Source: Dehalococcoidia bacterium (GTDB taxonomy: Bacteria; Chloroflexota; Dehalococcoidia; Lucifugimonadales; CATOSD01). Taken from it: a stretch of 64,000 nucleotides of DNA. Location of the stretch: assembly GCA_965204815.1 (NCBI GenBank), contig OZ242014.1, positions 3,213,747 to 3,277,746 on the forward strand, given 5' to 3'. A model generated the notes under the pieces. It saw nothing but the letters and a program-made list of their open reading frames with translations. It searched no databases and was not told where the DNA came from. Position numbers and translations under genes: made by a program. Below are positions 23,166 through 60,003 of this stretch, in pieces; the first letter of the stretch is position 1, and every line of letters begins with the position of its first letter.

Positions 23166-25604
23166 ATGAGATACGCAGAAGTCGCAGTCGACGCCCCCGC
23201 AGGCTTCGCTCGCACGTTCAGCTACTCCATACCGGAAGGACTCAGCGTGCGGCCGGGCCAGCTCGTCCGCGTGCCGTTCGGGGCGCAGCGGCTGCAGGGC
23301 ATGGTGTTCTCGCTCGAGGACACGCCCCAGGTGCCGCAGACCCGCGACATCCTGGCCGCCGCGAGCGACGAGCCTCTGCTGACGGGCGAGCAGCTCCGGC
23401 TCGCGACCTGGATCAGCGGCTACTACATGTGCCCGCTCCTGGACGCCGCCGCGCTGATGATGCCCCCCGGCCGGCGCGTGCGCTCGAGGGCCGTCCTGTC
23501 CCCAGGCGAGCACGCCGACGACGAAGGCCTGTCCCTGACTCCCCTGCAGCAGCGCGTGCTGGACTACGTGCGCAGGCGGGGAGATGTCGCCGAGGGACGC
23601 CTGGCCGCCGCGCTTGGCGAGTCGGCCCGCGGATCCGCCGCGGCCCTGGCCCGCCGGGGTGTGCTGGAGCGTCGCACCGAGGAACGCCGACCCACCACGC
23701 GGCCCCTGCGGCGCAAGCGGCTGCGGATGATCGACGACGGCGGACAGGGCCTGCGCCGGTGGCTCGACGAGACAGAACGCAATGAGAGGCAGGCCGCTCT
23801 CGCACGTCGGCTGATCGCCGGCAGCGCGCCTCTGCTGCTCAGAGAGGCGAACGAGCGGTACGGCAGCTACGCCGTCAACAGGCTGGTCGCTACGGGCTGG
23901 GTGGAGAAGGAAGATGCGACGTTCGAGCGCGACCCCCTGGCCGGGAGGAGCTTTCAGACCGTCACGCCGCCCGTGCTCACGCCGGAACAGGAGAAGGTGG
24001 CGAGGGAGATTCGCGCCGTACTGGCGGACGAATCCGCGTCTCCCAGGTCCTTCCTGCTCCAGGGCGTGACCGGCAGCGGCAAGACCGAGGTCTACCTCGA
24101 CGCCGTAGAGGAGTGCAGCAGGCTGGGCAAGCGGGCCATCGCGCTGGTGCCGGAAATCGCGCTCACCCACCAGACCATCGATCGCTTCTCGGCCAGGTTC
24201 CCGGGGCGCGTCGCGGTGCTCCACAGCGGCCTCACGCCCGGCGAGCGATTCGACCAGTGGTGGGGCATCAGGCGCGGCGACTACGACGTGGTGATCGGCA
24301 CGCGCAGCGCGCTGTTCGCGCCCCAGCCGGACCTGGGGCTGGTGGTTATCGACGAGGAGCACGACTGGAACTACAAGGAGGGCAACGTCAACCCCCGCTA
24401 CCACGCACGCGACGTGGCCATGAAGCTGTGCGAGCTGAGCGGCGCGGCGCTGGTGATGGGCAGCGCGACCCCGGACGTGGGCACCTACTACATGGGCCGG
24501 CGCGGTCCCATCGGCTTGCGGCATCTTCCCCACAGGGTCCGCTCCGGATCCGCCACGTCGCACACCGAGCGTGCGCCGCTCGCTCGCGTCGCGGTGGTGG
24601 ACATGAAGGAGGAGCTTAGGGCTGGCAACCGGGGCATGTTCAGCCGTGGACTTGCACGGGCCATCGAGCGCAACCTGGCGTCGGGCGAGCAGACCATCCT
24701 GTTTCTCAACCGGCGCGGCGCGGCGGCGTTCAGGCAGTGCCGCAGGTGCGGATTCAGCCTGCGCTGCCGGCGTTGCGACGTGTCGCTCGCCTACCACACC
24801 AACCTCGACAGGCTGCTGTGCCACCACTGCGGCTACCGGCGCAGGGCGCCCCAGAAGTGCCCGAGCTGCCTCAGCTTCCAGCTTGCCTACTACGGCTTCG
24901 GCGTCCAGAGCGTGGAAGAGGAGGTCGGCCGCCTGTTCCCGGGCACCCGCGTCGCGCGATGGGACAGCGACGCGGTGAGCGGCGCGCGCGCCCACGCGCG
25001 GGTCGCCGAGAGTTTCGGGTCGGGCGAGGCCGACGTGCTGGTGGGCACGCAGATGGTCACAAAGGGGCTCCACTTCCCGTCCGTGACGCTGGTGGGGGTG
25101 GTGTCCGCCGACGTCGGCCTGAACGTGCCGGACTTCCGGGCGGGCGAGCGTGCCTTCCAGTTGCTGTGCCAGGTGGCCGGGCGCGCCGGACGGGGGGAGA
25201 ACCCCGGCACGGTGATTGTGCAGACCTACCAGCCGGACAACTACGCGGTGTCCGCCGCCGCCGCGCAGGACTACCAGCGCTTCTACCGCCAGGAGATGGC
25301 GCACCGCTACGCGCAGGCCAACCCGCCCTACACCAAGCTCATCAGGCTGGTCTACTCGCACCTCAACGCGCAGACCGCCGAGGGCGCGGCCCGCAGGTTC
25401 GCGCGCGCGCTCAGGGAGCAGCGCGAGGCGTGGGGTCTATCGGACGTGGATCTGCTGGGGCCGACGCCCGCCTACCCCGCGCGGGTGCGGGCGCGCTACC
25501 GGTGGCAGATGCTGCTGCGCGGTCCGGAGCCGCGCCGTCTGCTGGACACGGTAGCCGTCCCCAACGGCTGGACGGTGGACGTGGATCCGGCAACGCTGGC
25601 GTGA
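23166..25604 (+). CDS. priA: primosomal protein N' (replication restart helicase)
   Basis: GVTGSGKTEVY, LVPEIALT, IDEEHD, zinc-binding CxxC pairs, GTQMVTKG, PDFRAGER, QVAGRAGR. Confidence 0.97.
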   Translation: MRYAEVAVDAPAGFARTFSYSIPEGLSVRPGQLVRVPFGAQRLQGMVFSLEDTPQVPQTRDILAAASDEPLLTGEQLRLATWISGYYMCPLLDAAALMMPPGRRVRSRAVLSPGEHADDEGLSLTPLQQRVLDYVRRRGDVAEGRLAAALGESARGSAAALARRGVLERRTEERRPTTRPLRRKRLRMIDDGGQGLRRWLDETERNERQAALARRLIAGSAPLLLREANERYGSYAVNRLVATGWVEKEDATFERDPLAGRSFQTVTPPVLTPEQEKVAREIRAVLADESASPRSFLLQGVTGSGKTEVYLDAVEECSRLGKRAIALVPEIALTHQTIDRFSARFPGRVAVLHSGLTPGERFDQWWGIRRGDYDVVIGTRSALFAPQPDLGLVVIDEEHDWNYKEGNVNPRYHARDVAMKLCELSGAALVMGSATPDVGTYYMGRRGPIGLRHLPHRVRSGSATSHTERAPLARVAVVDMKEELRAGNRGMFSRGLARAIERNLASGEQTILFLNRRGAAAFRQCRRCGFSLRCRRCDVSLAYHTNLDRLLCHHCGYRRRAPQKCPSCLSFQLAYYGFGVQSVEEEVGRLFPGTRVARWDSDAVSGARAHARVAESFGSGEADVLVGTQMVTKGLHFPSVTLVGVVSADVGLNVPDFRAGERAFQLLCQVAGRAGRGENPGTVIVQTYQPDNYAVSAAAAQDYQRFYRQEMAHRYAQANPPYTKLIRLVYSHLNAQTAEGAARRFARALREQREAWGLSDVDLLGPTPAYPARVRARYRWQMLLRGPEPRRLLDTVAVPNGWTVDVDPATLA
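25523..25604 (+). repeat. priA 3' end, direct repeat copy 1 (functional)
   Basis: 82 bp recurring at 31857-31938; its last 41 bp recur at 26229-26269. Confidence 0.95.
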
Positions 25605-25658
25605 GGGGCCGGCTCTGAACTGTTGCCACCCCGCCACTTCTATGGCGCGTAAACTCGC

Positions 25659-25669
25659 CATACGGTATG
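25659..25669. promoter_or_regulatory. palindrome CATACGGTATG, possible antitoxin operator
   Basis: Inverted repeat between TCGCCA and TATGAT just upstream of the AbrB-type gene. Confidence 0.4.
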
Positions 25670-25703
25670 ATATTTCTATGATGATATTCATACGAGGTAA
25701 GTC

Positions 25704-25919
25704 ATGCGCATATCCGAACGCGGACAAATCACCATCCCCAAGCGATTCAGAGACCGCTTCGGCATGAACAAGGACGTAGAGGTCGAAATCACGCCCACCG
25801 AACACGGCCTGCTCATCCAAAAGCGATCGGCGGCGCAGCATCCGGTCGAGAAGATTAGTGGAATCCTGGATGGGGCTGTGGACGTTGACCAGTACATCGA
25901 AGAGATTCGGGGAAGATGA
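25704..25919 (+). CDS. AbrB/MazE/SpoVT family antitoxin
   Basis: MRISERGQITIPKRFRDRFGM. Confidence 0.9.
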   Translation: MRISERGQITIPKRFRDRFGMNKDVEVEITPTEHGLLIQKRSAAQHPVEKISGILDGAVDVDQYIEEIRGR

Positions 25920-26107
25920 TCACGTCGGTTGATACCAATGTCCTGTTGGATGTCTTCGTCTCGACCGCACCGCACCACTCTCAATCGCAGAAATGGCTGA
26001 TAGACGCCTACGACAGAGGAGCCATACTTGTCTGCGACGTCGTATACGCGGAGCTTGTTCCGGCGTTTGGAGACCGCACGTCGCTGGACAACGCGCTAGC
26101 GCAGTGA
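25916..26107 (+). pseudogene. truncated PIN/VapC toxin
   Basis: MITSVDTNVLLD...VVYAEL then a stop at 63 aa; C-terminal half of the PIN domain absent; ATGA overlap with the antitoxin. Confidence 0.82.
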
Positions 26108-26156
26108 GATCGACCGAACGGCCTGCAATCGAAACATAGCGCCGCCACACACTCCG

Positions 26157-26228
26157 CGCCGCACGACCGCGGCTTCATGCTGGCGGATGTGGTGTTCGAC
26201 GTGGCCGCACGTTCAACGGCAAGAGCTT
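26157..26228 (+). repeat. displaced copy of an internal 5' fragment of the class IV aminotransferase gene
   Basis: Matches 32097-32169 with three substitutions and a 1-bp deletion. Confidence 0.92.
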
Positions 26229-26269
26229 ACGGCTGGACGGTGGACGTGCATCCGGCGACGCTGGCGTAG
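26229..26269 (+). repeat. priA 3' end, partial copy 2
   Basis: ACGGCTGGACGGTGGACGTGCATCCGGCGACGCTGGCGTAG. Confidence 0.92.
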
Positions 26270-26304
26270 AGCGGAGGATGACAGGCGGTGGGTGATTCGC
26301 TAAC

Positions 26305-28850
26305 ATGCCCACCATGAACGAGGCAACGGCGCGCATAAAGATCAATCGTCTGCTGGAAAAGGCGGGCTGGCGCTTCTTCCCGGAAGGAGACAGCCCCGCC
26401 AACGTCCAGCTCGAGGCGGGCGTCGCGCTCAAGCAGTCAGACCTCGACTCGCTCGGCGACGATTTCGAGAAGACCGGTAAAGGGTTCGTTGACTACCTTC
26501 TGCTGGATGAGAAGGGATTTCCCCTCGTCGTGCTGGAGGCCAAGTCCGAAGAGAAGCAGCCCCTCGCCGGCAAAGAGCAGGCCCGCAAGTACGCCCGCTC
26601 CCAGAACTGCCGCTTCATCATCCTCTCGAATGGCAACCTGCACTATTTCTGGGACCTGGAGCGGGCAATCCCAGCGTCATTACCGCTCTTCCAACGCCGC
26701 ACTCCGTAGCCGGTTACAGCAAGGCCCAGCCCAACCCAAATCGCCTCATAGACGAGCAGGTCCGGGACGACTACGTTGTCCTCACTCAGCGTCCCAACTA
26801 TGCCTCGACAGCGGCGTGGAAAAACGAGGCTGAGCGGGATGGCTTCGTCCGTGCCAACGGTCTCCGCTTTCTGCGTGGCTACCAGCTCCGGGCGATTCAC
26901 GCTCTGCAGCAGGCCGTCAAGGACGGCAGCGACCGCTTTCTGTTCGAGATGGCGACCGGCACGGGCAAGACACTCACCTCCGCGGCCGTCATCAAGCTGT
27001 TCCTGCGGTCCGGCAACGCCTCACGGGTACTGTTCCTCGTCGATCGCCTTGAGCTCGAAGAGCAAGCCCGGAAGGTGTTCACCGCCCTGCTCTCCGCCGA
27101 CTACCAGACCGTCGTCTACAAGGAGCGGCGTGACGACTGGCGTACCGCCGAGATAGTTGTCAGCACCGTCCAGTCTCTTCTCTTCAACAACAAATACCAG
27201 TCCCTGTTCTCGCCGACCGACTTCGATCTCGTGATTTCGGACGAGGCGCATCGCTCCATCAGCGGCAACTCCCGCGCGGTGTTCAACTACTTCGTTGGCT
27301 ACAAGCTCGGCCTCACCGCCACCCCGAAAGACTATCTCAGGGGCGTAGATAAGAAAGGCGCAAACGTCCACGATCCGCGCGAGGCCGAACGGCGGCTGCT
27401 GCTGGACACCTATCACACGTTCGGCTGCGAGAGCGGACAACCCACGTTCCGATATTCGTTAGTGGACGGCGTAAAGGACGGGTATCTCATCAATCCCACA
27501 GTGGTCGATGCCCGTACCGAAGTGACCACGCAGTTGCTCGCGGACGACGGCTTTATTGTTTCGGTCGCCGATGACACCGGTGAAGAGCATGAGGAGAGCT
27601 ACAAACAGCGCGAGTTCGAGAAACGGTTCTTCTCCGATGCCACCAACCAGGTCTTCTGCAAGACCTTCCTCGAGAACGCGCTGCGCGACCCCGTGAGTGC
27701 CGAGATAGGCAAGTCCATCATCTTCGCAGTGAGCCAGAACCACGCCGCCCGGCTGACGCAGACCCTCAACGAAATAGCCGACGTCATGTATCCTGACAAG
27801 TACCAGTCCGACTTCGCGGTGCAAGTCACGTCCCAGGTGGCGGACGCCCAGCAGTTCACCATCAACTTCGCCAACAACAACCTGATGGGCTCGCGCAACT
27901 TCCTCGATTCCTACCGCACCAGCAAGGCGCGCGTGTGCGTAACCGTCGGCATGATGACCACCGGCTACGACTGCACCGACATCCTCAATCTCGGTATGTT
28001 CCGGCCCATCTTCTCGCCCACCGACTTCGTCCAGATAAAGGGACGCGGCACTCGCACACACACCTTCACCGAGCAGATCGAGGGCGATTCGCTCGCCGAA
28101 GATGTGACTCAGCCCGAGAAGACCGCCTTCAAACTGTTCGACTTCTTCGGCAACTGCGAATTCTTCGAGACGGAGTTCGACTACGACGAGGAGATCAAGC
28201 TGCCGCGGCCCCAGCCCGGCAACGGCGAGCCAGGAGTGAACGGCGGAACCGGCCCGACTGTGTACGTTTCCTATGAGCACCTGGGCACTGACATCCTGGC
28301 CACAATTCAGGAAGAGGCCATAGGTCCCGAAGGGATGAAGATTGACAGGATGTTCTTTGACCGGTTCGCGGACACCGTCCGGGCCATCGAGACCGTCAGG
28401 AAGGCGGTTGAAGCGGGCAACTGGGACCTGGTGATCGATTACGTGAACCGCGAAGTGTTCGACAAACCGGAGGACTACTACACGCTGCCCAAGCTGCGAA
28501 AAGCCGTGTCAATAGACCGTCGCCTTACCTTGCGCGAGATTCTCGAAAAGGTCTTCAATTTAATCCCCGCCTTTAAGTCAAAGGATGAATTGCTGGAAGA
28601 GGAATTCGAGAAATTCGTGGTTCGACATACCCCCAGAAGGGCCAATTCCATCCCTGCCATCAAGACCTTCTTCAAGGCCTACGTCACCGACGGCTACGTT
28701 CGGGAGATCATCGACAAAAGGCAACTCGCCAGATTAGCCACCAACCCGTCATTCTCTATGTACGACTTCCGTGCCGTGCCACGGCGGTATCATAAACTCG
28801 TCCCCGAGTACATTAAGGACTACGTCTCGCTGAACCAGTTCGCCCCGTAA
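26305..28850 (+). pseudogene. hsdR: Type I restriction endonuclease subunit R, frameshifted
   Basis: N-terminal nuclease (VDYLL...LEAK), Walker A MATGTGKT, DEAHRS, QIKGRGTR. Adding one G to the GGG at 26663-26665 joins both ORFs into one frame (DLERGNPSVIT...). Could be a sequencing error. Confidence 0.85.
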
Positions 28851-28858
28851 GGGAAGTC

Positions 28859-31351
28859 ATGCTGGACACCGCCACCAAACAGCGCATCGACACCGCCCGC
28901 GACATCCTCGTCGGCAAGGTTCCCGATCCCAGGAGCCAGATCGAACAGATTACCATCGCCCTCATCTACAAGTTCATGGACGACATAGACTCCGAGAGCG
29001 AGGAGTTGGGCGGCAAGCGCGAGTTTTTTGCGGGACAGTTCGCCAAGTACCGCTGGGCAAAGCTGGTGGGGCCGGGCGTCGGTGGGAACGAGGCGCTTAA
29101 CCTGTACGCCGAATCCATAGCCCGCATGCCCGAAAACCCGGGCATTCCGGCCCTGTTCCGTGACATCTTCAACAACGCCTATCTACCCTATCGAGACCCT
29201 GAGACGCTGCGAGCCTTCCTCAAGGTCATCGACGAGTTCACCTACGACAATTCTGAGCGGTTAGGCGACGCCTACGAGTACCTGCTCTCGGTGCTTGGCG
29301 TGCAGGCCGACGCCGGACAGTTCCGCACTCCCCGCCACATCATCGACTTCATCGTTTCCATCGTGGATCCGAAGAAGGACGATTCGATTCTGGATCCCGC
29401 CTGCGGCACTTCGGGGTTTCTCATATCCGCCTACAAGCACATCCTGGCGGCCAACACCGACAGCGACGGCCAGAGCGGGTTGACGCCGGAAGAGCGGGCC
29501 CGGCTGGTCAACAACTTCAAGGGCTACGACATCTCCCCGGACTATGTGCGCCTTTCGCTAGTGAACATGTACCTGCATGAGTTCCTTGAGCCGCACATAT
29601 ACGAATACGACACGCTCACCAGCGAAGACAGGTGGAACGAGTACGCCGACGTGATTCTGGCCAACCCGCCCTTCATGAATCCGAAGGGCGGCATAAGACC
29701 CCACAACCGCTTCTCGGTCACGTCCAGGCGTAGTGAAGTGCTGTTCGTGGACTACATAGCTGAGCATCTGACCGCCAACGGACGGGCTGGCGTGATCGTG
29801 CCGGAGGGCATCATCTTCCAAAGCCAGAACGCTCACAAACAACTTCGCAAGATGCTGGTGGAAGATTACCTCGTGGCAGTGGTGTCGTTACCTGCTGGGG
29901 TCTTCAACCCCTACTCCGGCGTCAAGACGTCCATCCTGATACTCGACCGCGCTCTCGCCAAGCGGACCGACTCCATTGCGTTCTTCAAGGTGGAGAACGA
30001 TGGCTTCGACCTCGGTTCCCAGCGCCGGCCAATCGACGACAACGACTTGCCAAGAGTGCAAGCCGAGCTTAGTGAGTACCTATCCCGCCTGCGAGCGGAC
30101 GAACCTCAGACCGCCACCCCTGCCCCTGCATCCAGCGTAGCCGAGGCGAAGTCAAACTACTCGACGAACGAGTTGATATTGGGGGTGGTGGTCGACAAGT
30201 CAAAGATATCTAAGGAGGGCGAGTACATTCTGAGTCGGGAGCGTTACGGCGAAACTTCCAGAAGGACATCTCTCTACCAAATGTTGCCGTTTGCTGAAGT
30301 GTGTTCTCTAGAATATGGCGCAAGCTTGCCGAAGAAGAATCGCGTACATGGTCCTTATCCTGTCATGGGCTCCAATGGCGTGAGTGGCTACCACAACAAC
30401 TTCATAGTCGAGGGGCCCGCCATCATCGTAGGGCGAAAGGGATCTGCTGGGGAAGTGACCTTTGTAAACGATAACTGCTTCCCCATAGACACGACCTACT
30501 ATGTAAAGCAGTCAGATCCCGAAAAAACAGATATACGGTTTCTCTATCATCTGTTGAAGGACCTTGGCTTGGCCGACATTCGAAATGGTGCAGCAGTCCC
30601 GGGCCTAAACAGAAATGATGTTTATGCAAGATATCAATTGCCAATCCCACCCATCGAAGTTCAGCGAGAAATCGTGGCAGAGATTGAAGGCTGCCAGAGA
30701 GTCATTGACGGTGCGCGCGCCGTGGTGGAGAATTACCGCCCCCATCTCTCTGTTGATCCAGAATGGCCGACAGTGAAGATAGGTGAAGTCTGTGACCTAA
30801 TCAACGGCCGTGCGTTCAAACCACAAGATTGGGAACCTGCTGATAGTGGGGGTCTTCCAATTGTCAGAATACAAAATCTCAACTCTCCCGGTAGCGATAT
30901 GAACTACTACACTGGGAAAGTTGACGAGCGCCACCTTATCAAAGACGGGCATCTCTTGTTTTCTTGGTCTGGCTCCCGAGGCACGTCTTTTGGAGCGCAC
31001 ATTTGGGGTGGTGGAGAAGCGGTACTAAATCAGCACATCTTTAAGGTCAATTTTGACCAGAACAAGACAGCCAAAATGTACCTATATCTCGCATTGAATC
31101 AGGTGGTTAGTGAGGTTGAGCAAAATCTTCACGGAGGAGTTGGGCTAGTCCACATTACGAAGGGTAATCTGGAGAAGATTCAAATTCCCTTGCCTGACCT
31201 GAGCCAACAACAGGCTATAGTTGCCGAAATGGAGGCCGAACAGGCTGCCGTGGACGCCAACCGCGAGCTTATCGAGCGATTCGAAAAGAAGATTGATGCC
31301 GCCATAGCAAGGGTGTGGGAAAGTAAACCAACCGCAGAGGCGAGTGGGTAG
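28859..31351 (+). CDS. Type I RM N6-adenine methyltransferase fused to a specificity subunit (HsdM-HsdS)
   Basis: GQFRTPRHII, DPACGTSGFL, NPPF, followed by two AT-richer TRDs ending PIPPIEVQREIV and IPLPDLSQQQAIV. Confidence 0.92.
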   Translation: MLDTATKQRIDTARDILVGKVPDPRSQIEQITIALIYKFMDDIDSESEELGGKREFFAGQFAKYRWAKLVGPGVGGNEALNLYAESIARMPENPGIPALFRDIFNNAYLPYRDPETLRAFLKVIDEFTYDNSERLGDAYEYLLSVLGVQADAGQFRTPRHIIDFIVSIVDPKKDDSILDPACGTSGFLISAYKHILAANTDSDGQSGLTPEERARLVNNFKGYDISPDYVRLSLVNMYLHEFLEPHIYEYDTLTSEDRWNEYADVILANPPFMNPKGGIRPHNRFSVTSRRSEVLFVDYIAEHLTANGRAGVIVPEGIIFQSQNAHKQLRKMLVEDYLVAVVSLPAGVFNPYSGVKTSILILDRALAKRTDSIAFFKVENDGFDLGSQRRPIDDNDLPRVQAELSEYLSRLRADEPQTATPAPASSVAEAKSNYSTNELILGVVVDKSKISKEGEYILSRERYGETSRRTSLYQMLPFAEVCSLEYGASLPKKNRVHGPYPVMGSNGVSGYHNNFIVEGPAIIVGRKGSAGEVTFVNDNCFPIDTTYYVKQSDPEKTDIRFLYHLLKDLGLADIRNGAAVPGLNRNDVYARYQLPIPPIEVQREIVAEIEGCQRVIDGARAVVENYRPHLSVDPEWPTVKIGEVCDLINGRAFKPQDWEPADSGGLPIVRIQNLNSPGSDMNYYTGKVDERHLIKDGHLLFSWSGSRGTSFGAHIWGGGEAVLNQHIFKVNFDQNKTAKMYLYLALNQVVSEVEQNLHGGVGLVHITKGNLEKIQIPLPDLSQQQAIVAEMEAEQAAVDANRELIERFEKKIDAAIARVWESKPTAEASG

Positions 31352-31388
31352 GCCTTTGCCGCGTCTCAGATTGGTCTCCTTTCTTCGC

Positions 31389-31488
31389 TCGACAAAACGC
31401 CCCGTGTGATGTAGCATCCTCTCTCACTCCCCCTGTCGCTTCTGGTGGCAGGGTAGCAAGGCCACCTTCGAGGTGGCCTTTGCATTTT
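31389..31488 (+). ncRNA. candidate small RNA with its own promoter and terminator
   Basis: TCGACA-17 nt-TAGCAT, then a CU-rich leader, hairpin CCCTGTCGC/GTGGCAGGG, and a terminator hairpin. Confidence 0.45.
31458..31488 (+). terminator. intrinsic terminator
   Basis: Perfect stem AAGGCCACCT/AGGTGGCCTT followed by TGCATTTT. Confidence 0.65.
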
Positions 31489-31593
31489 GCGAGACTATGA
31501 CTGCCAACATCCATTCGTACTCCGCAGAGGCGTCCCCTTGTGGTTGTCCTGTGGCGAGGCGTCGCCGCGGCCGATTCCGACCCCTACACGCCC

Positions 31594-31623
31594 TTGACCT
31601 CCTCCGCACATCCGTGCTAGCAT
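31594..31623 (+). promoter_or_regulatory. sigma70-type promoter with palindromic spacer (element copy B)
   Basis: TTGACC-18 nt-TAGCAT containing GCACATCCGTGC (31606-31617), identical to copy A. Confidence 0.6.
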
Positions 31624-31856
31624 ACCTTTGACAAGGGACTGACCCACCGACCTGGCGCCCACGGATGCGGCGTTCGGCGCCCCCTGCCGGCCTGTCCCAT
31701 TTTCACCCGATGCCGTAACCTCCATACCTAAATGCGCCTCATTTGGGGCTATCAATCGTCCTAACCGCCAACACTCCCAGCTATGAGACGCAACGGAATG
31801 CAACGATTTGCATCAGTCTTCGGCAAATTTGGCGCCCGCAGGCGCTCTTTGGCCTC

Positions 31857-31938
31857 TCCGGAGCCGCGCCGTCTGCTGGACACGGTTGCCGTGCCCAACG
31901 GCTGGACGGTGGACGTGGACCCGGCGACGCTGGCGTAG
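31857..31938 (+). repeat. priA 3' end, direct repeat copy 3 (displaced)
   Basis: Encodes the identical PEPRRLLDTVAVPNGWTVDVDPATLA*; differs by four synonymous codon changes and TGA>TAG. Confidence 0.95.
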
Positions 31939-32035
31939 GAGAAGCGGCGGCGTATTCCCCCGCTTTGCGCACAACGCTATACTATCCCCAAACACAGCAG
32001 ACACGCCCGGTGAAGCGCGGGCGAAAGGGGGAGGC

Positions 32036-32941
32036 ATGGCAGACTACACGGCCTATTTCAACGGGGATTGGGTGCCGTTCGACGACGTGAAGGTGTCGCC
32101 GCACGACCGCGGATTCATGCTGGCGGACGTGGTGTTCGACGTGGCCCGCACCTTCAACGGCAAGAGCTTTCGCATGAAGCAGCACGTCGACCGGCTGTAC
32201 CGCTCGCTCAAGTTCGTTCGCATCGACCCGGGGCTCTCGCACGAGGAGATGATGTCCATCAGCGAGGAGTCCATCGAGCGCAACATGGACAGGCTGCCGG
32301 AGGCGGGCGACTTCACCGTTCGCCAGTGGGTCACGCGCGGGCCGGGCCGCTGGGCGCACACCTCGGGGCCGCCCTCCGTGTGCGTGGAGGTGCAGCCCAT
32401 CTCGTTCGACCGGTTCTCCGGCCTGTACGCGGACGGCGCGCACGGCGTCATAGCCCGGACCCGCAGCTTTCCCGCCGAGACCCTCGATCCCAAGGTCAAG
32501 CACCACAGCCGCATGAACTTCAATCTCGCCGAGCTGGAGGCCGCCGACGTCGACGAGTCCGCCTGGCCGATCCTGCTGGACGTGGACGGCAACCTGACCG
32601 AGGGCATCGGCTACAACGTGTTCCTGGTCACCGACGGCGTGCTGCGGCTGCCCGGCGACAGCACCCTGCTGCAAGGCGTGTCGCGCGGCATGGTTGTGGA
32701 CCTGGCGCGGCAGCTCGACATCCCCGTCGCCGAGGAGGAGATGCAGCCCTACGACCTGTACACCGCCGACGAGGTGTTCTTCTCCGGCACCAGCCCCTGC
32801 GTGCTGCCCGTCACGCGGGTGGACCGGCGGGAGGTCGGCGACGGCAAGCCGGGTCCGGTCACCGAGCAACTGCTCGCGGCGTGGAGCGAGACCGTGGGGC
32901 TGGACATAGTGGACCAGGCGCTGCGCTTCAGCAGAGGATGA
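32036..32941 (+). CDS. PLP-dependent aminotransferase class IV (IlvE/DAAT-like)
   Basis: HDRGF, HVDRLYRS, PKVKHHSR, TEGIGYNVF, LLQGVSR, ADEVF. Confidence 0.92.
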   Translation: MADYTAYFNGDWVPFDDVKVSPHDRGFMLADVVFDVARTFNGKSFRMKQHVDRLYRSLKFVRIDPGLSHEEMMSISEESIERNMDRLPEAGDFTVRQWVTRGPGRWAHTSGPPSVCVEVQPISFDRFSGLYADGAHGVIARTRSFPAETLDPKVKHHSRMNFNLAELEAADVDESAWPILLDVDGNLTEGIGYNVFLVTDGVLRLPGDSTLLQGVSRGMVVDLARQLDIPVAEEEMQPYDLYTADEVFFSGTSPCVLPVTRVDRREVGDGKPGPVTEQLLAAWSETVGLDIVDQALRFSRG

Positions 32942-32993
32942 CCCGGACCCTTAGCTCGACTGTCAGCGGGAGCGTGAGCACGAGACGCCGCTG

Positions 32994-35900
32994 ATGGACG
33001 CCGACCGGCAGGATAGCGCCGCGCGAGAACGCGCGACGTGGCTCACCGTCGGGGCGCTGGCCGCGATTCTGGCGGTCGCGCTCGGCTTGCGGCTCTACGG
33101 CCTGGGCTGGGACGAAGGCTTCGACTGGACGCCTCACCCCGACGAGCGCGCGATCCTTGCCAAGACCGTCCAGCTCTCGTTCCCCCTGGACGACCTCGGC
33201 TCGCTGCTCGACGCTGAGCGCAGCACCTGGAACCCGCGCTGGTTCCCGTACGGCAGCATGCCGATGTACGCGCTGTCTGTCCTACGCTCGGCCGCGTCGA
33301 CGCTCGCCGGCGCCGAGCTACAAGACCTGCGGCCGATGGCGCGGGCCATATCCGCGCTCGCGGACGTGGGCACGGTGGCGATGGTGTTCGTGCTGGGCGC
33401 GCGAGTGTATGGCCGGGCCGTCGGCCTGCTGGCGGCTGCGCTGACGGCGCTGGCGGTGCTGCACGTCCAGCTAAGCCACTTCTTCGCCGTCGACACGCTG
33501 GCCGCGCTGTTCAGCGTGGCGGCGCTGTTCTTCCTGTACCGCGTCGCCAGGCACGGAAGACTCAGTGACTCGATTCTGGCGGGCGTGCTGATAGGGCTGG
33601 GGCTGGCCACCAAGGTGAGCCTCTTCCCGATAGTGGCCGCCTTTGGCGTCGCCCACCTGCTGCACGTCATGGGCGCGCTGGAGGGCGCATCCGGCCAGCG
33701 GAGGGCGTTCACGCTACGCCTGCCGAGCGCGCTGTGGGGCGCGGTCGCTGGCGCCGTCGCCATCGCCGCCATCTTCGCGCTCACGCAGCCATACGCCCTG
33801 CTGGACTGGCACCGCTTCCTGGCCGACGTCACCGAGCAGTCGGAGATGGTGCGGCGCATCCGGGACTACCCGTACACGCGGCAGTACGTGGACACCACGC
33901 CGTACCTGTACCACGCGCGGCAGCTTGCGGCCTGGGGTCTTGGCTGGCCGCTGGGCGTCGTGGCGCTGGCGGGGCTGGCGTACGCGGCGCTGCGTGGCAT
34001 GAGACCGGCGCACGGCCTCGTCTACCTCGCCGCCGGGTGGGCCGCGCCCGCGGCGATGCTGCTGCTCTGGGACGGGGTGCTGGCCATCGCCGCCGCCTCC
34101 GCAGTCGCGCTGGCGGCGCTGCTCGCCACGCTGGCGGTGCGCTCGGCCTCGTCCAGGGTGGACGTGCTGCTGCTGAGCTGGGTGGTGCCCTATCTGCTCA
34201 TCACGGGGGCTTTCGAGGTCAAGTTCCTGCGCTATCTGCTCCCCGTGACGCCGTTCCTGCTGCTGTTCGGCGGCAGGATGCTGTACGACCTGTGGCGTCG
34301 GGCCGGCGAGTGGCGGGGCGGCGAGGCTCGGCCGTTGGTGTCGGCGGCCATAGCAATCGTCGTGGGCGCCACCGCGCTTTACGCGCTGGCCTACGTTGCG
34401 GGTGTGTACGGACAGCCGCTCACGTCGGTGCGCGCGGGCGAGTGGGTGCGGGAGAACGTGCCGCGCGGCGCCGTGATTCTCAAGGAGCACTGGGAAGAGG
34501 GGTTGCCCAGGCTAAGAGGGTACGACACTCGGGAGCTGGAGATGTACAACCCCGACGGCGCGCGCAAGCAGCGCCACGTCGCGGATCGACTCGCCCAGGC
34601 CGACTACCTGGTGTTGTACAGCAATCGGCTCTACGGCACGATTTCGAGGCTGCCGGAGCGCTATCCGATCAGCAGCGAGTATTACCGCCTGTTGTTTTCC
34701 GGGCAGCTTGGGTACGAGATCCGGCTGGTCGAGACGTCCTATCCCAGCCTGCTCGGCGTGGGCCTGGTGGACGACACGTTCGGCCGGGCCGTTCTGTCCG
34801 AGCCAGCGGCATCGCGCGAACAGGCCGACTTCCCGCTCACGCTGAATCTTGGCTACGCGGACGAGAGCTTCACGGTGTACGACCACCCCAAGGTGTTCGT
34901 GCTGGAAAACGTCGGACGCTTCGACTCGGCCCGGATAAGCGCGCTGTTCGACGGGTTGCCCGCGCCTGTGCCGCCTCCGGTGAGGGGCGTCCAGGACGCC
35001 GGGGGGCCAGACGGTGTGCGGGGACTCGTGCTGTCGCCGGAGGACGCCGCGACGCAGCAGGCGGGCGGCACCTGGCGGGAGATCATCGACACCGGCAGTT
35101 GGGCGAACCGCGTGCCGTTGCTGGCGTGGCTCGTCGTGATCGAGGGCCTGTCGCTGCTCGCGCTGCCCGCCGCGCTGCTGCTGTTCCGTCCCCTGCCCGA
35201 CCGAGGCTACCTGCTGGTGAAGGCGCTGGCGCTGCTGGCGGCGTGCCTGGTGGTGTGGCTGCTGGCGAGCCTGCGCTGGATGCCGTTCTCGCAGGGGGCT
35301 ATCGGCGTCGCGGCGCTGACGCTGGCGGTCGTGTCGTTCGCGGCGTTAGCGCTGCGCGGCGGCGAGATTCGCGCGTTCGTCCGCGAGCGCTGGCGGCTGA
35401 TAGCGATATGCGAGGCGGTGTTCCTCGCCGCGTTCCTGGCGTTCGTGCTGTTGCGAATGGCGAACCCGGACCTGTGGCATCCGTTCAGGGGCGGCGAGAA
35501 GCCGATGGACTTCGCGTACCTGAACGCGGTGGTACGCTCGACGATCATGCCGCCCTACGATCCCTGGTTCGGCGGCGGCTACCTGAACTACTACTACTGG
35601 GGGCAGCTCATGGTCGCCACGCTGATAAGGGCGACCGGAATCCAGCCGGCGGTAGCCTACAACCTGGCGGTGCCCACCTTCTTCGCGCTCGCGGTGGGCG
35701 GCGCATTCTCGGTGGTCTACAACCTCGCCGCGAGCGCGCTGCGTCCGGCGGGCGTGGCGTCGCGGGCCGTGTTTCGCAGGCCGCCAAACGTCGAATGGTC
35801 CGCCGTGGCCGCGGGGCTGGTCGGCGCGCTGTTCGTGTGCGTGCTTGGCAACCTGGACGGCGCGCGACAGGTCATTGTCGGCGCCTGGCGCTGGCTCGAG

Positions 35901-56722: not shown

Positions 56723-56830
56723 CTACCCACGCTTGCGCGCCACCGCGCGGCGGGCGGCTTGGGCTACGTCGGCGGCGGTGAGGTGATACTTGGCCATGAG
56801 GGCGTCGGGGGCGCCGGCCGGGGTGTAGCC
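56723..56830 (-). repeat. displaced diverged copy of the transketolase 3' end
   Basis: Encodes GYTPAGAPDALMAKYHLTAADVAQAARRAVARKRG* versus GYAESGAPDALMAKYHLTAADVAQAARRAVARKAV* at 59062-59169. Confidence 0.95.
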
Positions 56831-57299
56831 ACTGAGAAGGTTCAGTCTCGGAATGAGAAGAGCGGCAAGAGCTCATCCCGTATGTAGTTCACGTCGTCGC
56901 GGTCTATTCCCACGTACAGCCCCTCATCGGTTGAGGATACCCAATCGAAAAAGCCGGCGGCGTCTTCAACATCTCTGAGAGTAAGCTTCAACGAATTGGT
57001 CCTGCCGTACTCATCACGCTGCTCGACAGTTATCCTGCCTTGATCCAACAGGTAATCCAAGAACTCTTCCACATCCACTGTGTCAATCTTAACGCGGGTG
57101 ACGTTGCCGCTCCCATCAGTCACGACGGTCTCCAGACTGCCATCGCTAATGACAACATAATTGGCCTCACCCGGAGACCCTGCGTAACCAGTGCCAGACT
57201 CTAGTAAGGACTCATCAAAATTTCTAAGTATGCGACGATCTAAATGTCCTTTGTTTATACCGAACTGTTTGTCCAGATAATTTTCACCTTTGGACTCTA

Positions 57300-58107
57300 G
57301 GTAGTGTTGACATTTCATCTTAGCCATATGAGAGCGCCGACGAAGTGGAGAAATCCAAGGTATCTATCCGCCAGCTTGTCGAATCGGGAGAAGATGTGGC
57401 GGTAGTGCTTGATCTTGCCTATGAAGCACTCAACGAGATGCCGCTCCCGGTACAGATACTCATCGTATGAGGGTGGCTCCCTGCGGTTCGAGCGAGGCGG
57501 GATCACCGGGGTAGCCTCGTTGCCGATGATCGACTCACGAAACTGACGGGAGTCATATGCGCGGTCTGCAATCACATACTCGCTCTCCATACCCCACACG
57601 AGCGCCTCGGCCTGAGTGACATCGTGCTCCTGTCCTGCGGTCAGCGTATACCTCAAGGGATTGCCGAGGCCATCGACAGCCACGTGGACCTTCGTAGTGA
57701 ACCCACCTCGGCTTCGACCGAGGGCTTGAGATGCTTGACCACCCTTTTTTTGGGTGCGCCCGCAGCCGAATGATGGGCCCGGACTATGGTACTGTCGATT
57801 ATCAGGTGCTCCATGTCAGGATCATCGGCGAAATGCTGATGCATTCGCTCCCATACTCCGTTCTCACACCATCGGCCGAACCGCTTGTAGACGCTGTTCC
57901 ATTTCCCATACTCGGAAGGCAGTAGCCTCCATGACGCGCCAGACCTGCTCATCCACATGATAGCCTCGATGAACCGCTCACAGTCGGCCTCCTGTCCGAC
58001 ATACACGTCTGGCTGGCTACGAAGGAACTCCAACACCCGTGACCATTGCTCTGGAGATAGGTTAACTGTTGACATATACCCAGTATAATGCAAATGTCAA
58101 CACTACC
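57300..58107 (-). mobile_element. IS5-family insertion sequence, complete
   Basis: Perfect 16-bp terminal IRs GGTAGTGTTGACATTT; TA duplication at 57298-57299 and 58108-58109. Confidence 0.93.
57315..58075 (-). CDS. IS5 transposase, two ORFs probably joined by a -1 frameshift
   Basis: orfA WRLLPSEYGKWNSVYKRF, IDSTIVRAH; A7 slippery run at about 57745-57751; orfB ADRAYDS, YRERHLVECF. Confidence 0.88.
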
Positions 58108-59061
58108 TAATAGTTTATAAATTGCAACAGACACCTTATCACCCGAAACCGCAATTGGATCTCCACTAACAACGCTCCTCTTCTGTGCAGAGGTTAGAAC
58201 GCCTTCCTTGTGCAAATAATCTAGAAGAACACCTGCGTTCCTAAAGCTAACATAAACGAGACCAGCTCCGTTATCATAACCAAAAGAGGCGTAAGCATTA
58301 TTAGAACTTGGTTTAATAACAACTTCTTCGCTCACTCGAGTTGGGGCAGCAGCAGGGACAGGAACTTTGGTAGGTGTGGCAATCGCTTCAGCAACAACTG
58401 GCTCTGAATCTTCAGTAAACCCGACCAGGTATTTCACGTCTTCTTTTTCCAGTCCGAAGCGCTCTTTCAAATCGTCATAGCCCTGGCTTTGGACCAACTC
58501 GAACATATTGTTGGCTAGTTCGTCGATGGTTAGCTGCAGAACCTGTTCTTGTTCGTATCTTTCCAGTTCTTTCTGGTCAATCGCTCCTGAGGCAGCCAGA
58601 TATTCTACAAAGCTCTGGGCGTCCGTTAATTCGATCACTTTCCGCCCTTTGTCAGAATCGATGTAGAAGTCGCTTCCCCTGAGAACCACGCTGTTGTCTT
58701 CAACAGCCAAGGGCTGTGAAGTCGGAGCGGGCGGAGGAGCGGTTGCGGTCGGAGAAATGGGGGTTTCTCCAGCAACAGCACCAGGGGGAGAGGCGGTGGG
58801 AGCTTCAACTTGCTGAACAACGGGCGCGGGTGCCGGAGGCGGCTCGGACCTGCCGGTCAAGGCGAACACTGCCAAAGCAGCGACGGCGACTACGGCAATC
58901 GCTCCGGCGATCTTGGTTGATCGGGGAGCTTCTCTGACTCTTTCAACAAGGCCTGACAAGACGAACTCCAAGCCCTCCGCTCATTCCCAACTGCCATACG
59001 GTGTAACCCATGTCCCCGGTCTATACACCCATCGAGGGAGAAGGGATGGTGGTGCTGCCCC

Positions 59062-60003
59062 CTACACCGCCTTCCGCGCCACCGCTCGCCGGGCGGCTTG
59101 GGCTACGTCGGCGGCGGTGAGGTGGTACTTGGCCATGAGGGCGTCGGGGGCGCCGGACTCGGCGTAGCCGTGGAGGGCGACCGTCTCCTGGGGCGTGGGA
59201 GCCTCGCGGGCGAGGGTCTGGGCGACCATGCCGCCCAGCCCGCCGACGACGTAGTGCTCCTCCGCCGTGACGATGGCGCCGGTCTCGCGCGCGGCGGCGA
59301 TGACGGCCGCCTCGTCCAGCGGCTTGATCGTGGCCGTGTTGAGCACGCGGCAGGAAATGCCCTCGGCGGCGAGCGTCTCGGCGGCCTCGAGCGCGACGCT
59401 CACCATGATGCCGCACGCCACTATCGCCACGTCGTCGCCCTCGCGCATCGTCTCGGCCTCGCCGAGGCGGAAGTCGTAGTCCTCGGCGTGCACCACCGGG
59501 GTGGCAGAGCGTGACAGCCGGACGTAGAAGGGGCCCTGGGTGGCGACGGCGCTGCGGACTGCGCGGACGGTCTCGGGGCCGTCCGCAGGGACGACGACGG
59601 TGAACTCGGGCAGCGCGCACATGAGCGCGAGGTCCTCGATGCTGTGGGCGGACACGCCGTCCTCGCCGGTGATGATGCCGCTGTGGGTGGCGATGACCTT
59701 GACGTTGAGGCGCGGCTGGGACACTCCGACGCGGAGCTGGTCGTGGGGCCGGCTGGTGGAGAAGACGGCGAACGTGCTGACGACGGGTATCTTGCCGGAG
59801 GAGGCCATGCCCGCGGCCACGCTGACGATGTTCTGCTCGGCGGGGCCGAAATCGAAGAAGCGGTCGGGATACTTTTCGCCGAACAGGAAGGCGAAGGTGG
59901 AGACGTTGAGGTCGCCGCCGAGTACGACGAGGTCGGGGAACTCGGCTCCCAGCTCTACGAGCGTCTGCCCGGCTACTTCGCGTGTGACGGCGGTCTCGGC
60001 CAT
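59062..60003 (-). CDS. transketolase, C-terminal (pyrimidine-binding) subunit
   Basis: FGPAEQN, TFAVF, GEDGVSAH, TIKPLD, TAEEH. Confidence 0.94.
   Translation of the reverse strand: MAETAVTREVAGQTLVELGAEFPDLVVLGGDLNVSTFAFLFGEKYPDRFFDFGPAEQNIVSVAAGMASSGKIPVVSTFAVFSTSRPHDQLRVGVSQPRLNVKVIATHSGIITGEDGVSAHSIEDLALMCALPEFTVVVPADGPETVRAVRSAVATQGPFYVRLSRSATPVVHAEDYDFRLGEAETMREGDDVAIVACGIMVSVALEAAETLAAEGISCRVLNTATIKPLDEAAVIAAARETGAIVTAEEHYVVGGLGGMVAQTLAREAPTPQETVALHGYAESGAPDALMAKYHLTAADVAQAARRAVARKAV

Follow-up and report, generated by a model that had tools for sequence, protein, structure and literature searches.

A reversed aminotransferase–priA joint in a defence-gene island of a Dehalococcoidia bacterium and its possible origin as a seam between versions of one variable site

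Introduction

In a Dehalococcoidia bacterium (assembly GCA_965204815.1), priA and a class IV aminotransferase gene (AT) are separated by an island of 6.4 kb, which lies within the 64,000-nucleotide stretch of contig OZ242014.1 (positions 3,213,747 to 3,277,746 of the forward strand) that we refer to as the window. Read from left to right, the locus consists of a priA end, a toxin-antitoxin (TA) block, a piece of AT, a second priA end, a restriction-modification (RM) block, a third priA end and, finally, AT itself. The island thus holds a fragment of its downstream flank gene fused to the end of its upstream flank gene, and the question raised by this locus is how such a joint came about. A preliminary description proposed that it records a circular or tandem intermediate and several successive cassette additions at a single site, in an array-like arrangement that lacks integron attC sites.

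Several known processes leave gene-end repeats or varied cargo at fixed chromosomal sites. According to the ICE/CIME model of Streptococcus thermophilus, integrative elements accrete in tandem at the 3' end of a gene. Insertion with long target duplication was reportedly first described in a 2000 paper in Gene, and the original work on homology-facilitated illegitimate recombination (HFIR) is said to have been done in Acinetobacter. Long target duplication is recognised by the presence of both R and M genes, an insert of less than 20 kb, repeats of more than 30 bp, an empty relative and the lack of mobility genes (PMC2853133, Furuta, Abe & Kobayashi 2010); in the part of that report drawn upon here, the mechanism is stated as unknown, the repeats are noted often to span stop codons, and hsd alleles are mentioned as exchanged loci. 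HFIR has been defined experimentally in transformation and conjugation, as set out in the portion of PMC3240628 used here.

Here, we describe the anatomy of the priA–AT island, its counterparts in eight genomes of the same genus and the recurrence of its layout elsewhere in the genome. With a probability of roughly 60%, we read the joint as a passive seam between stacked versions of one priA–AT variable site.

Results

Anatomy of the island

The features of the locus are given below, with window coordinates, strand and the basis of each assignment.

23166-25604, plus: priA, 812 aa, upstream flank gene (Pfam PriA_3primeBD, DEAD, Zn_ribbon_PriA, PriA_C)
25523-25604, plus: tail A, the last 82 nt of priA (repeat families D2 and D5)
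25605-25703, plus: leader (IG_A) of the TA block; promoter-like site, 25655-25682 (promoter scan; 71% identical to post-tail sequence of relative G008)
25704-25919, plus: MazE/AbrB-type antitoxin, 71 aa (Pfam MazE_antitoxin, E 6e-6; 87% identical to the same-locus copy in G008)
25916-26107, plus: remnant of a PIN (VapC-type) toxin (Pfam PIN, profile positions 3-43 of 120)
26108-26156, no strand: 49 nt of DNA without assignment (covered together with the joint by a contig from run X2)
26157-26228, plus: displaced AT-gene fragment, 72 nt, corresponding to AT nt +62 to +134
26229-26269, plus: tail B, 41 nt copied from the end of priA, TAG stop included (repeat alignment)
26305-28850, plus: hsdR, type I restriction subunit (Pfam HSDR_N, ResIII; PADLOC REase_I)
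28859-31351, plus: fused hsdM-hsdS, 830 aa (Pfam N6_Mtase and two Methylase_S; PADLOC MTase_I, Specificity_I)
31352-31589, plus: non-coding end (h1/h2) of the RM block, including a terminator-like hairpin, 31458-31480 (terminator scan)
31590-31856, plus: conserved non-coding element nc; promoter-like site, 31594-31623 (alignments; promoter scan)
31857-31938, plus: tail C, an 82-nt displaced priA end (same tail and same left flank in relative G001)
31939-32035, plus: native priA–AT intergenic DNA (IG_C), 97 nt (stands directly behind the native priA stop of relative G004, an empty site)
32036-32941, plus: AT, class IV aminotransferase, 301 aa, downstream flank gene (Pfam Aminotran_4, E 5e-40)

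Gene and repeat maps agree on the order of parts set out above, as the preliminary description had read it. Counted from tail B to tail C, the insert is 5.6 kb long, and from tail A to tail C 6.3 kb. Tail B agrees with the native tail (25564-25604) at 90% of positions and with the third copy (31898-31938) at 95%, and tail C matches 25523-25602 at 95% identity over 80 nt.

Within the cargo, the PIN remnant keeps the first 63 of about 130 residues, full-length paralogues being 129 and 134 aa long, and three-frame translation locates a single frameshift, near 26650-26710, that breaks hsdR. Paralogous or transferred copies of the antitoxin-PIN pair, 68-85% identical, occur at C1:728078-728504 of the window's own genome (G000), at C1:708833-709187 of G004 and at C1:77071-80094 of genome G031; the pair moves independently of the priA site.

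A non-coding stretch of 505 nt follows hsdM-hsdS. Its h1/h2 portion is homologous to the DNA found right after priA in relatives G008 and G006, there behind a 34-nt hsdS remnant. Element nc is about 270 nt long, has a conserved promoter-like site of the extended -10 type, is found upstream of AT in seven of the nine genus genomes (in relatives at L026:7144-7425, L027:7371-7651, L033:4347-4633, L030:6547-6836, L031:5512-5834 and L032:6061-6382), and may be a leader or a small RNA. A consensus fold of eight nc sequences came to -17.75 kcal/mol, its covariation term being +0.95, with compensatory change in 5 of 29 pairs, a covariation too unconvincing for nc to be called a structured RNA. No family was returned by Rfam for 25000-33000 (E up to 1) or by Pfam for the nine small ORFs of the non-coding stretches (E up to 0.1), barring a chance-level match to DUF3331.

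The joint and its confirmation in public runs

The AT piece at 26157-26228 copies 32097-32169 with 69 of 73 columns matching, the remainder being three substitutions and a 1-nt deletion after 26206. BLAST aligned the two at 93.4% over 76 columns (E 6e-26) and recovered the copy from the whole 3.31-Mb genome at E 1.3e-25. Tail B abuts the piece with no spacer between them. Repeat alignment and BLAST thereby bear out the earlier reading of a 72-bp AT copy joined directly to the last 41 bp of priA, and the joint is indeed reversed, or head-to-tail, relative to the native order of the flanks. The sequence at the joint, GAGCTT/ACGGCT, contains no microhomology, the parents continuing with T on the one side and preceded by A on the other.

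Two of the four differences between the piece and the resident gene are allelic states found in relatives or other species, position 32113 being one such site. Since the piece carries two states of other species, it is not a fresh in-place copy. The 49 nt to its left (26108-26156) are probably the native 3' flank of the TA block, and gave no significant match to the 5' end of AT or to G008. A leftward extension of AT homology into 26098-26156, suggested by MAFFT, was rejected when 107 of 500 shuffles reached its score.

Contigs from public sequencing runs cross the joint. In run X6, which may be the source sample, a 2886-nt contig covers 24069-26954 with no differences, and another contig covers 29915-32169. 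From run X2, which belongs to a different study and is labelled coral metagenome, a contig of 5770 nt crosses the joint at 26098-26269, with 131 nt to the left and 41 nt to the right, nine differences and no 1-nt deletion; beyond the joint it continues through 4459 nt that are not on the window at 85% identity or more, and then returns to the window at 31918-32928 (spacer and AT). Its divergence in the joint region (9/172) equals that of the AT gene (47/1011). The X2 strain, about 5% diverged, thus carries the same joint with other or strongly diverged cargo behind it, and its post-joint DNA in place of the window's RM block represents an exchange of cargo between repeats. A contig from run X1 (26205-26779) has 24 nt to the left of the joint, and was not counted as bridging; it places tail B beside hsdR in a relative of about 92% identity. 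X1 and X2 contigs depart from the window at 26097/26098, inside the PIN remnant, and part of the RM block (30023-31290) has little or no cover in either run. No deletion between tails appeared among the contig joints listed, contigs being uninformative on rare variants.

That the joint is an artefact of assembly, a chimeric join at short repeats, is hardly credible. Short repeats of 41-82 nt are present, but contigs from X6 and from the unrelated study X2 bridge the joint, as the spanning check foreseen in the preliminary description had called for, and the genome is a single contig of 3.31 Mb. The joint between the AT piece and the priA tail is confirmed as a real scar.

Selection for the fused AT-piece/priA-tail as a functional element, be it a small ORF, a regulatory RNA or a promoter for the RM genes, would account for its being common to the X2 strain at about 5% divergence, and the 1-nt deletion in the window does let the AT frame run on into the frame of the priA tail. 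We regard this as very improbable. No start codon opens the fused frame after the PIN stop, and the X2 copy is without the deletion, so the fusion of frames is not conserved; the element has diverged in X2 to the same extent as the AT gene; it has no Rfam match; the only promoter-like site near the joint, at 26278-26306, sits after tail B; and the element is absent from all eight relatives.

A scan of metagenome contigs with the AT protein yielded 80 loci, the best at 75% identity and none from a close strain, and a 21-mer spanning the junction had no match in the genome collection, which may not include the genome itself. Neither search recovered a version with only the TA block or only the RM block at close range.

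Other versions of the site in relatives

The priA–AT interval was compared with that of eight genomes of the same genus (G001-G008). One of the eight, G004, is an empty site, in which the priA stop is followed by 98 nt and AT. Three of the eight have other cargo followed by a displaced priA tail of 45 to 82 nt, that of G003 being put at about 41-52 nt. G001 and G003 share a 2.7-kb island of two opposite-strand ORFs, and behind it lie nc, the displaced tail (in G001 82 nt long), the native spacer and AT; in G001 (L026:4871-6960), an ORF of 382 aa matches PADLOC PD-Lambda-5_A (E 6e-22) and one of 304 aa matches no family, and G003 carries the orthologue of this island. The third, G008, begins with priA, a 34-nt remnant of the hsdS 3' end and the same terminator block as the window. 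An NYN gene (L029:5920-6588; PADLOC HEC-09, E 9e-41) lies inside the non-coding tail of this deleted RM block, and the first 63 nt or so of nc are fused to a 45-nt priA tail, the repeat amounting to 63 nt at 95% when the 18 nt past the stop are counted. The displaced tail of G008 is followed by a leader and antitoxin (87%) like those of the window, with no toxin, and then by AT; the 159 nt after the antitoxin have no homology to the window's PIN remnant or to its 49-nt spacer.

In G006, the hsdS remnant is kept after priA and the locus is split by IS66-type elements, while G002, G005 and G007 have an interval of 0.5-0.8 kb with diverged nc and no displaced tail. Simpler variants of the site thus exist in G004, G001, G003 and G008, as expected if several additions have succeeded one another at one site, a part of the preliminary description that stands. 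As to single-cassette variants, relatives with one island and a displaced tail do occur; a second copy of the AT piece was found in none of the eight genomes, and no close TA-only or RM-only strain came to light.

Two of these genomes show further rearrangements. In G006, priA and AT lie 780 kb apart, each beside IS66-family transposase genes (C1:144000-156000 and C1:925000-937000), in what looks like an IS-mediated rearrangement through the hotspot. G005, a single contig, contains the priA–AT locus twice, at C1:1-6000 and C1:3417000-3427000, the second about 310 kb before its end; the two intergenic regions, of 524 and 804 nt, are about 86% identical, and could reflect a duplication or a mixture of two strains, contamination being given as 9%.

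Displaced tails at the priA site measure 41, 45 (63 with flank), about 41-52 and 82 nt. Their left boundary recurs at -41 to -45 in three contexts (tail B of G000, G008 and G003), which hints at a site preference that lies outside the predictions of our favoured reading. Displaced tails B and C, that of G001 and the 45-nt tail of G008 share the state GCGAC...TAG with the native tails of G004 and G008, while the native tails at the other seven loci have A at this site (GCAAC in six, GTAAC in G007). To judge from these alignments, import and an old in-place copy would fit the shared state equally. Alignment of priA (2.4 kb) and of AT with downstream DNA (2.4 kb) against five relatives in bins of 150 columns revealed no mosaic breakpoint.

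The same layout at other genes of the genome

Comparison of the genome with itself yielded 240 direct-repeat pairs of 38-400 nt within 20 kb, and in 29 of these one of the two copies finishes at a long ORF's stop codon. The low-copy pairs include at least five further loci with the layout tail-cargo-tail, with tails of 94-399 nt that are 87-97% identical.

OppC-like permease: repeat of 94 nt, 96%; cargo, a PD40 protein
MDMPI-like gene: repeat of 117 nt, 97%; cargo, an NYN protein
M17 aminopeptidase: repeat of 109 nt, 94%; cargo, a Uma2/PDC-S03 protein
Transketolase subunit (window 56732-56830 and 59071-59169): repeat of 99 nt, 92%; cargo, an unknown ORF with IS4/5 fragments
ogg-like gene: repeat of 399 nt, 87%; cargo, a STAND NTPase block

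These five loci lie at C1:2351643-2353826, C1:3193324-3194346, C1:2732491-2733610 and C1:1535112-1540604 of G000 and at 56732-59169 of the window. In all six loci, that of priA included, the repeat ends within 0-8 nt of the stop codon, a regularity that our favoured reading does not fully explain. The cargo blocks of the six have no common sequence, and BLASTP reveals no relationship between the NYN protein of G000 and that of G008 (E 2.8). Clean empty sites were found in relatives at both loci so tested (MDMPI in three and Opp in five of the eight genomes). Measured against relatives, neither the attached nor the displaced tail is the closer one at these two loci, with 0-4 mismatches per relative and no consistent direction, so there is no sign of a diverged donor and duplication in place fits as well.

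Two more candidate repeat loci were noted, at C1:286226 (three copies) and C1:881134. The genome also contains many dispersed repeats of 40-60 nt at 90-100% identity, some families having 40-89 matches (for example at C1:493000-507000 and 1402148-1413174).

The observations on tails bear on a possible, though unlikely, alternative in which the segment from priA -41 to AT +134, either the bare 272 nt or a cargo-containing form, would have been duplicated in tandem in place by slippage, template switching or unequal sister exchange, and cargo would later have come and gone differently in the two copies. Tandem duplication classically leaves a head-to-tail joint, both tails look equally native at the two other loci, and the flanks yielded no mosaic. 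Against this course, at least two more precise cargo events would be required, one per copy; identity between tails A and B is only 90%; two sites of the AT piece hold states of other lineages; and the opposite order of versions in G008 is easier to obtain by joining different alleles.

Recombinases, microhomology and competence genes

No recombinase domain was detected in 33 ORFs from the intervals of G000, G001, G008 and G006, the ORF-by-ORF scan having left out those of G002, G003, G005 and G007; the transposases among the scanned ORFs are of IS66/IS4 type and occur only in G006. In the window interval, 11 + 9 ORFs contain no transposase or integrase domain and no Phage_integrase match. Across the whole genome, the hits are two tyrosine recombinases of Xer size and a single serine recombinase, none of them closer than 330 kb. 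Among the 25 longest pairs that the repeat scan listed, none is an inverted repeat lying at a joint. Two of the three joints that could be analysed contain microhomology of 3-4 nt, namely TCC where nc meets the 82-nt priA tail and CCCA where nc meets the 45-nt priA tail of G008.

No integron features are apparent, in line with the preliminary description; Phage_integrase is lacking from the window interval, and the two genomic matches are far away. Its picture of an array-like cassette system, if taken to imply machinery of its own, does not hold in view of the 33 ORFs without a recombinase, the variable repeats and the occurrence of the layout at five unrelated genes. We give little credence to a series of integrase-driven islands accreting at an attachment site in the priA 3' end, the integrase having been lost or acting in trans. 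The three direct gene-3'-end copies between cargo blocks do resemble attL-attI-attR, and the -41 to -45 boundary recurs in three genomes. Against this, the scanned ORFs hold no tyrosine or serine recombinase domain and the genomic matches are remote, the repeats range from 41-82 nt here to 94-399 nt at five genes that share no sequence, and an att-site model leaves the AT piece unexplained. The resemblance to ICE/CIME accretion likewise extends to the three gene-end copies separating cargo and to the intact target gene, but here there is no integrase, the repeat boundaries vary and a downstream-gene fragment stands at the internal repeat. Successive additions of cargo at one chromosomal site are reminiscent of integron arrays; unlike these, the locus has no IntI, attC-like imperfect hairpins are not apparent at cassette ends, and its repeats are copies of a host gene end.

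Genes for ComEC and DprA are present in the genome, which lends weak support to DNA uptake. In a control search of 14 well-known genomes, the ComEC family matched 10 and the DprA family 11; given that both are common in these controls, the genes do not show competence.

Discussion

The joint between the AT piece and tail B is best accounted for, in our view, as a passive seam between stacked versions of a single variable site. The priA–AT interval would be a hotspot at which defence-type genes come and go, and the window would hold three versions of it in a row. Version T would comprise a priA tail, the antitoxin, the PIN remnant, 49 nt and AT +62 to +134; version R, the 41-nt priA tail, the type I RM genes, the terminator and nc; and version E, the empty one, the 82-nt priA tail, the native spacer and AT. 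Each displaced priA tail would then mark the start of the next version, and the AT piece would be the leftover right end of version T. By the same token, G008 could be read as version R followed by version T, in the opposite order, and G001 and G003 as a version with other cargo followed by version E.

A flank-to-flank seam can only originate where two copies of the interval were joined head to tail. The anatomy of the locus, its comparison with relatives, the lack of a recombinase and the recurrence of the layout in the genome are observations; the route and the sequence of events are what we infer. The seam AT +134/priA -41 would result from one illegitimate joining as two copies of the interval with different cargo recombined, the other end of the exchange being ordinary homologous recombination in a flank gene. 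The incoming DNA might have been a linear fragment of a related strain with a homology anchor at one end, as in HFIR; the same fragment might have been circularised and integrated by a single crossover; or the two copies might have met by unequal exchange between sister chromosomes. Later deletions would have removed the 3' half of the PIN gene as well as the spacer together with nt 1-61 of the displaced AT copy. The seam would be idle in itself; the direct repeats would permit deletion, amplification and exchange of blocks by homologous recombination. A long arm would give a clean, scarless replacement, which may be why the displaced tails are mostly short (41-117 nt, with 399 nt at ogg). The circular or tandem intermediate of the preliminary description accordingly retains part of its force: head-to-tail order fits it, but linear one-ended recombination gives the same product and a circle is only one possibility. 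The sequence by itself does not discriminate between a circular, a linear and a tandem-duplication route.

The locus fits insertion with long target duplication by the published criteria. A frameshifted hsdR and a fused hsdM-hsdS lie between tails B and C, the insert is 5.6 or 6.3 kb long, no mobility gene was found in it, the repeats measure 41 and 82 nt, and G004 is empty. As in the cases described in the part of PMC2853133 drawn upon here, stop-codon-spanning repeats keep the target gene intact, and type I systems are among those included. The differences from those same cases are that the repeats are nested, with three tails of 82, 41 and 82 nt; that a fragment of the downstream flank gene is attached to an internal repeat; that the cargo includes TA genes here and non-RM defence genes in relatives; and that the repeats are diverged (90-95%) rather than near-identical. 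No flank-to-flank joint was found in the passages of PMC2853133 that this comparison covers. The head-to-tail flank joint is a new detail relative to known long target duplication, and it argues that such insertions arise by recombination between alternative alleles and against a staggered cut of the target.

With HFIR, as far as the portion of PMC3240628 used here describes it, the proposed events would have in common one homologous and one illegitimate end, independence of a dedicated recombinase and microhomology of 3-4 nt at two of three joints; they differ in being inferred from scars alone and in the lack of microhomology at the focal joint. The variation of cargo between two conserved genes, with homologous exchange in the flanks, recalls the minimal mobile elements of Neisseria and allelic hsd loci, the latter as touched upon in PMC2853133. 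Whereas those loci undergo clean replacement, the island described here shows one-sided failure, stacked versions and flank fragments within it.

A more far-reaching and speculative reading, which we consider distinctly unlikely, is that the joint is a fossil of recombinase-free movement of defence cassettes, in which a looped-out circle is transferred to a related cell and re-enters by a single crossover at a conserved gene end. A block bounded by copies of a conserved gene end would circularise by homologous or illegitimate recombination, versions would pile up at one site, and priA -41 would be a preferred point of breakage or resolution. If this were true, long-target-duplication units would be a self-propagating class of homology-guided cassettes, and their mechanism would be explained.

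For general biology, the joint between stacked versions remains a scar of ordinary recombination and not a new system. The locus is an unusually legible case, with three versions stacked in one genome and relatives that carry separate versions and an empty site. It also shows that defence genes (RM, TA, NYN/HEC-09 and PD-Lambda-5-like) of sponge- and coral-associated bacteria turn over at fixed sites without an integrase, which matters for the detection and delimitation of defence islands in metagenome genomes.
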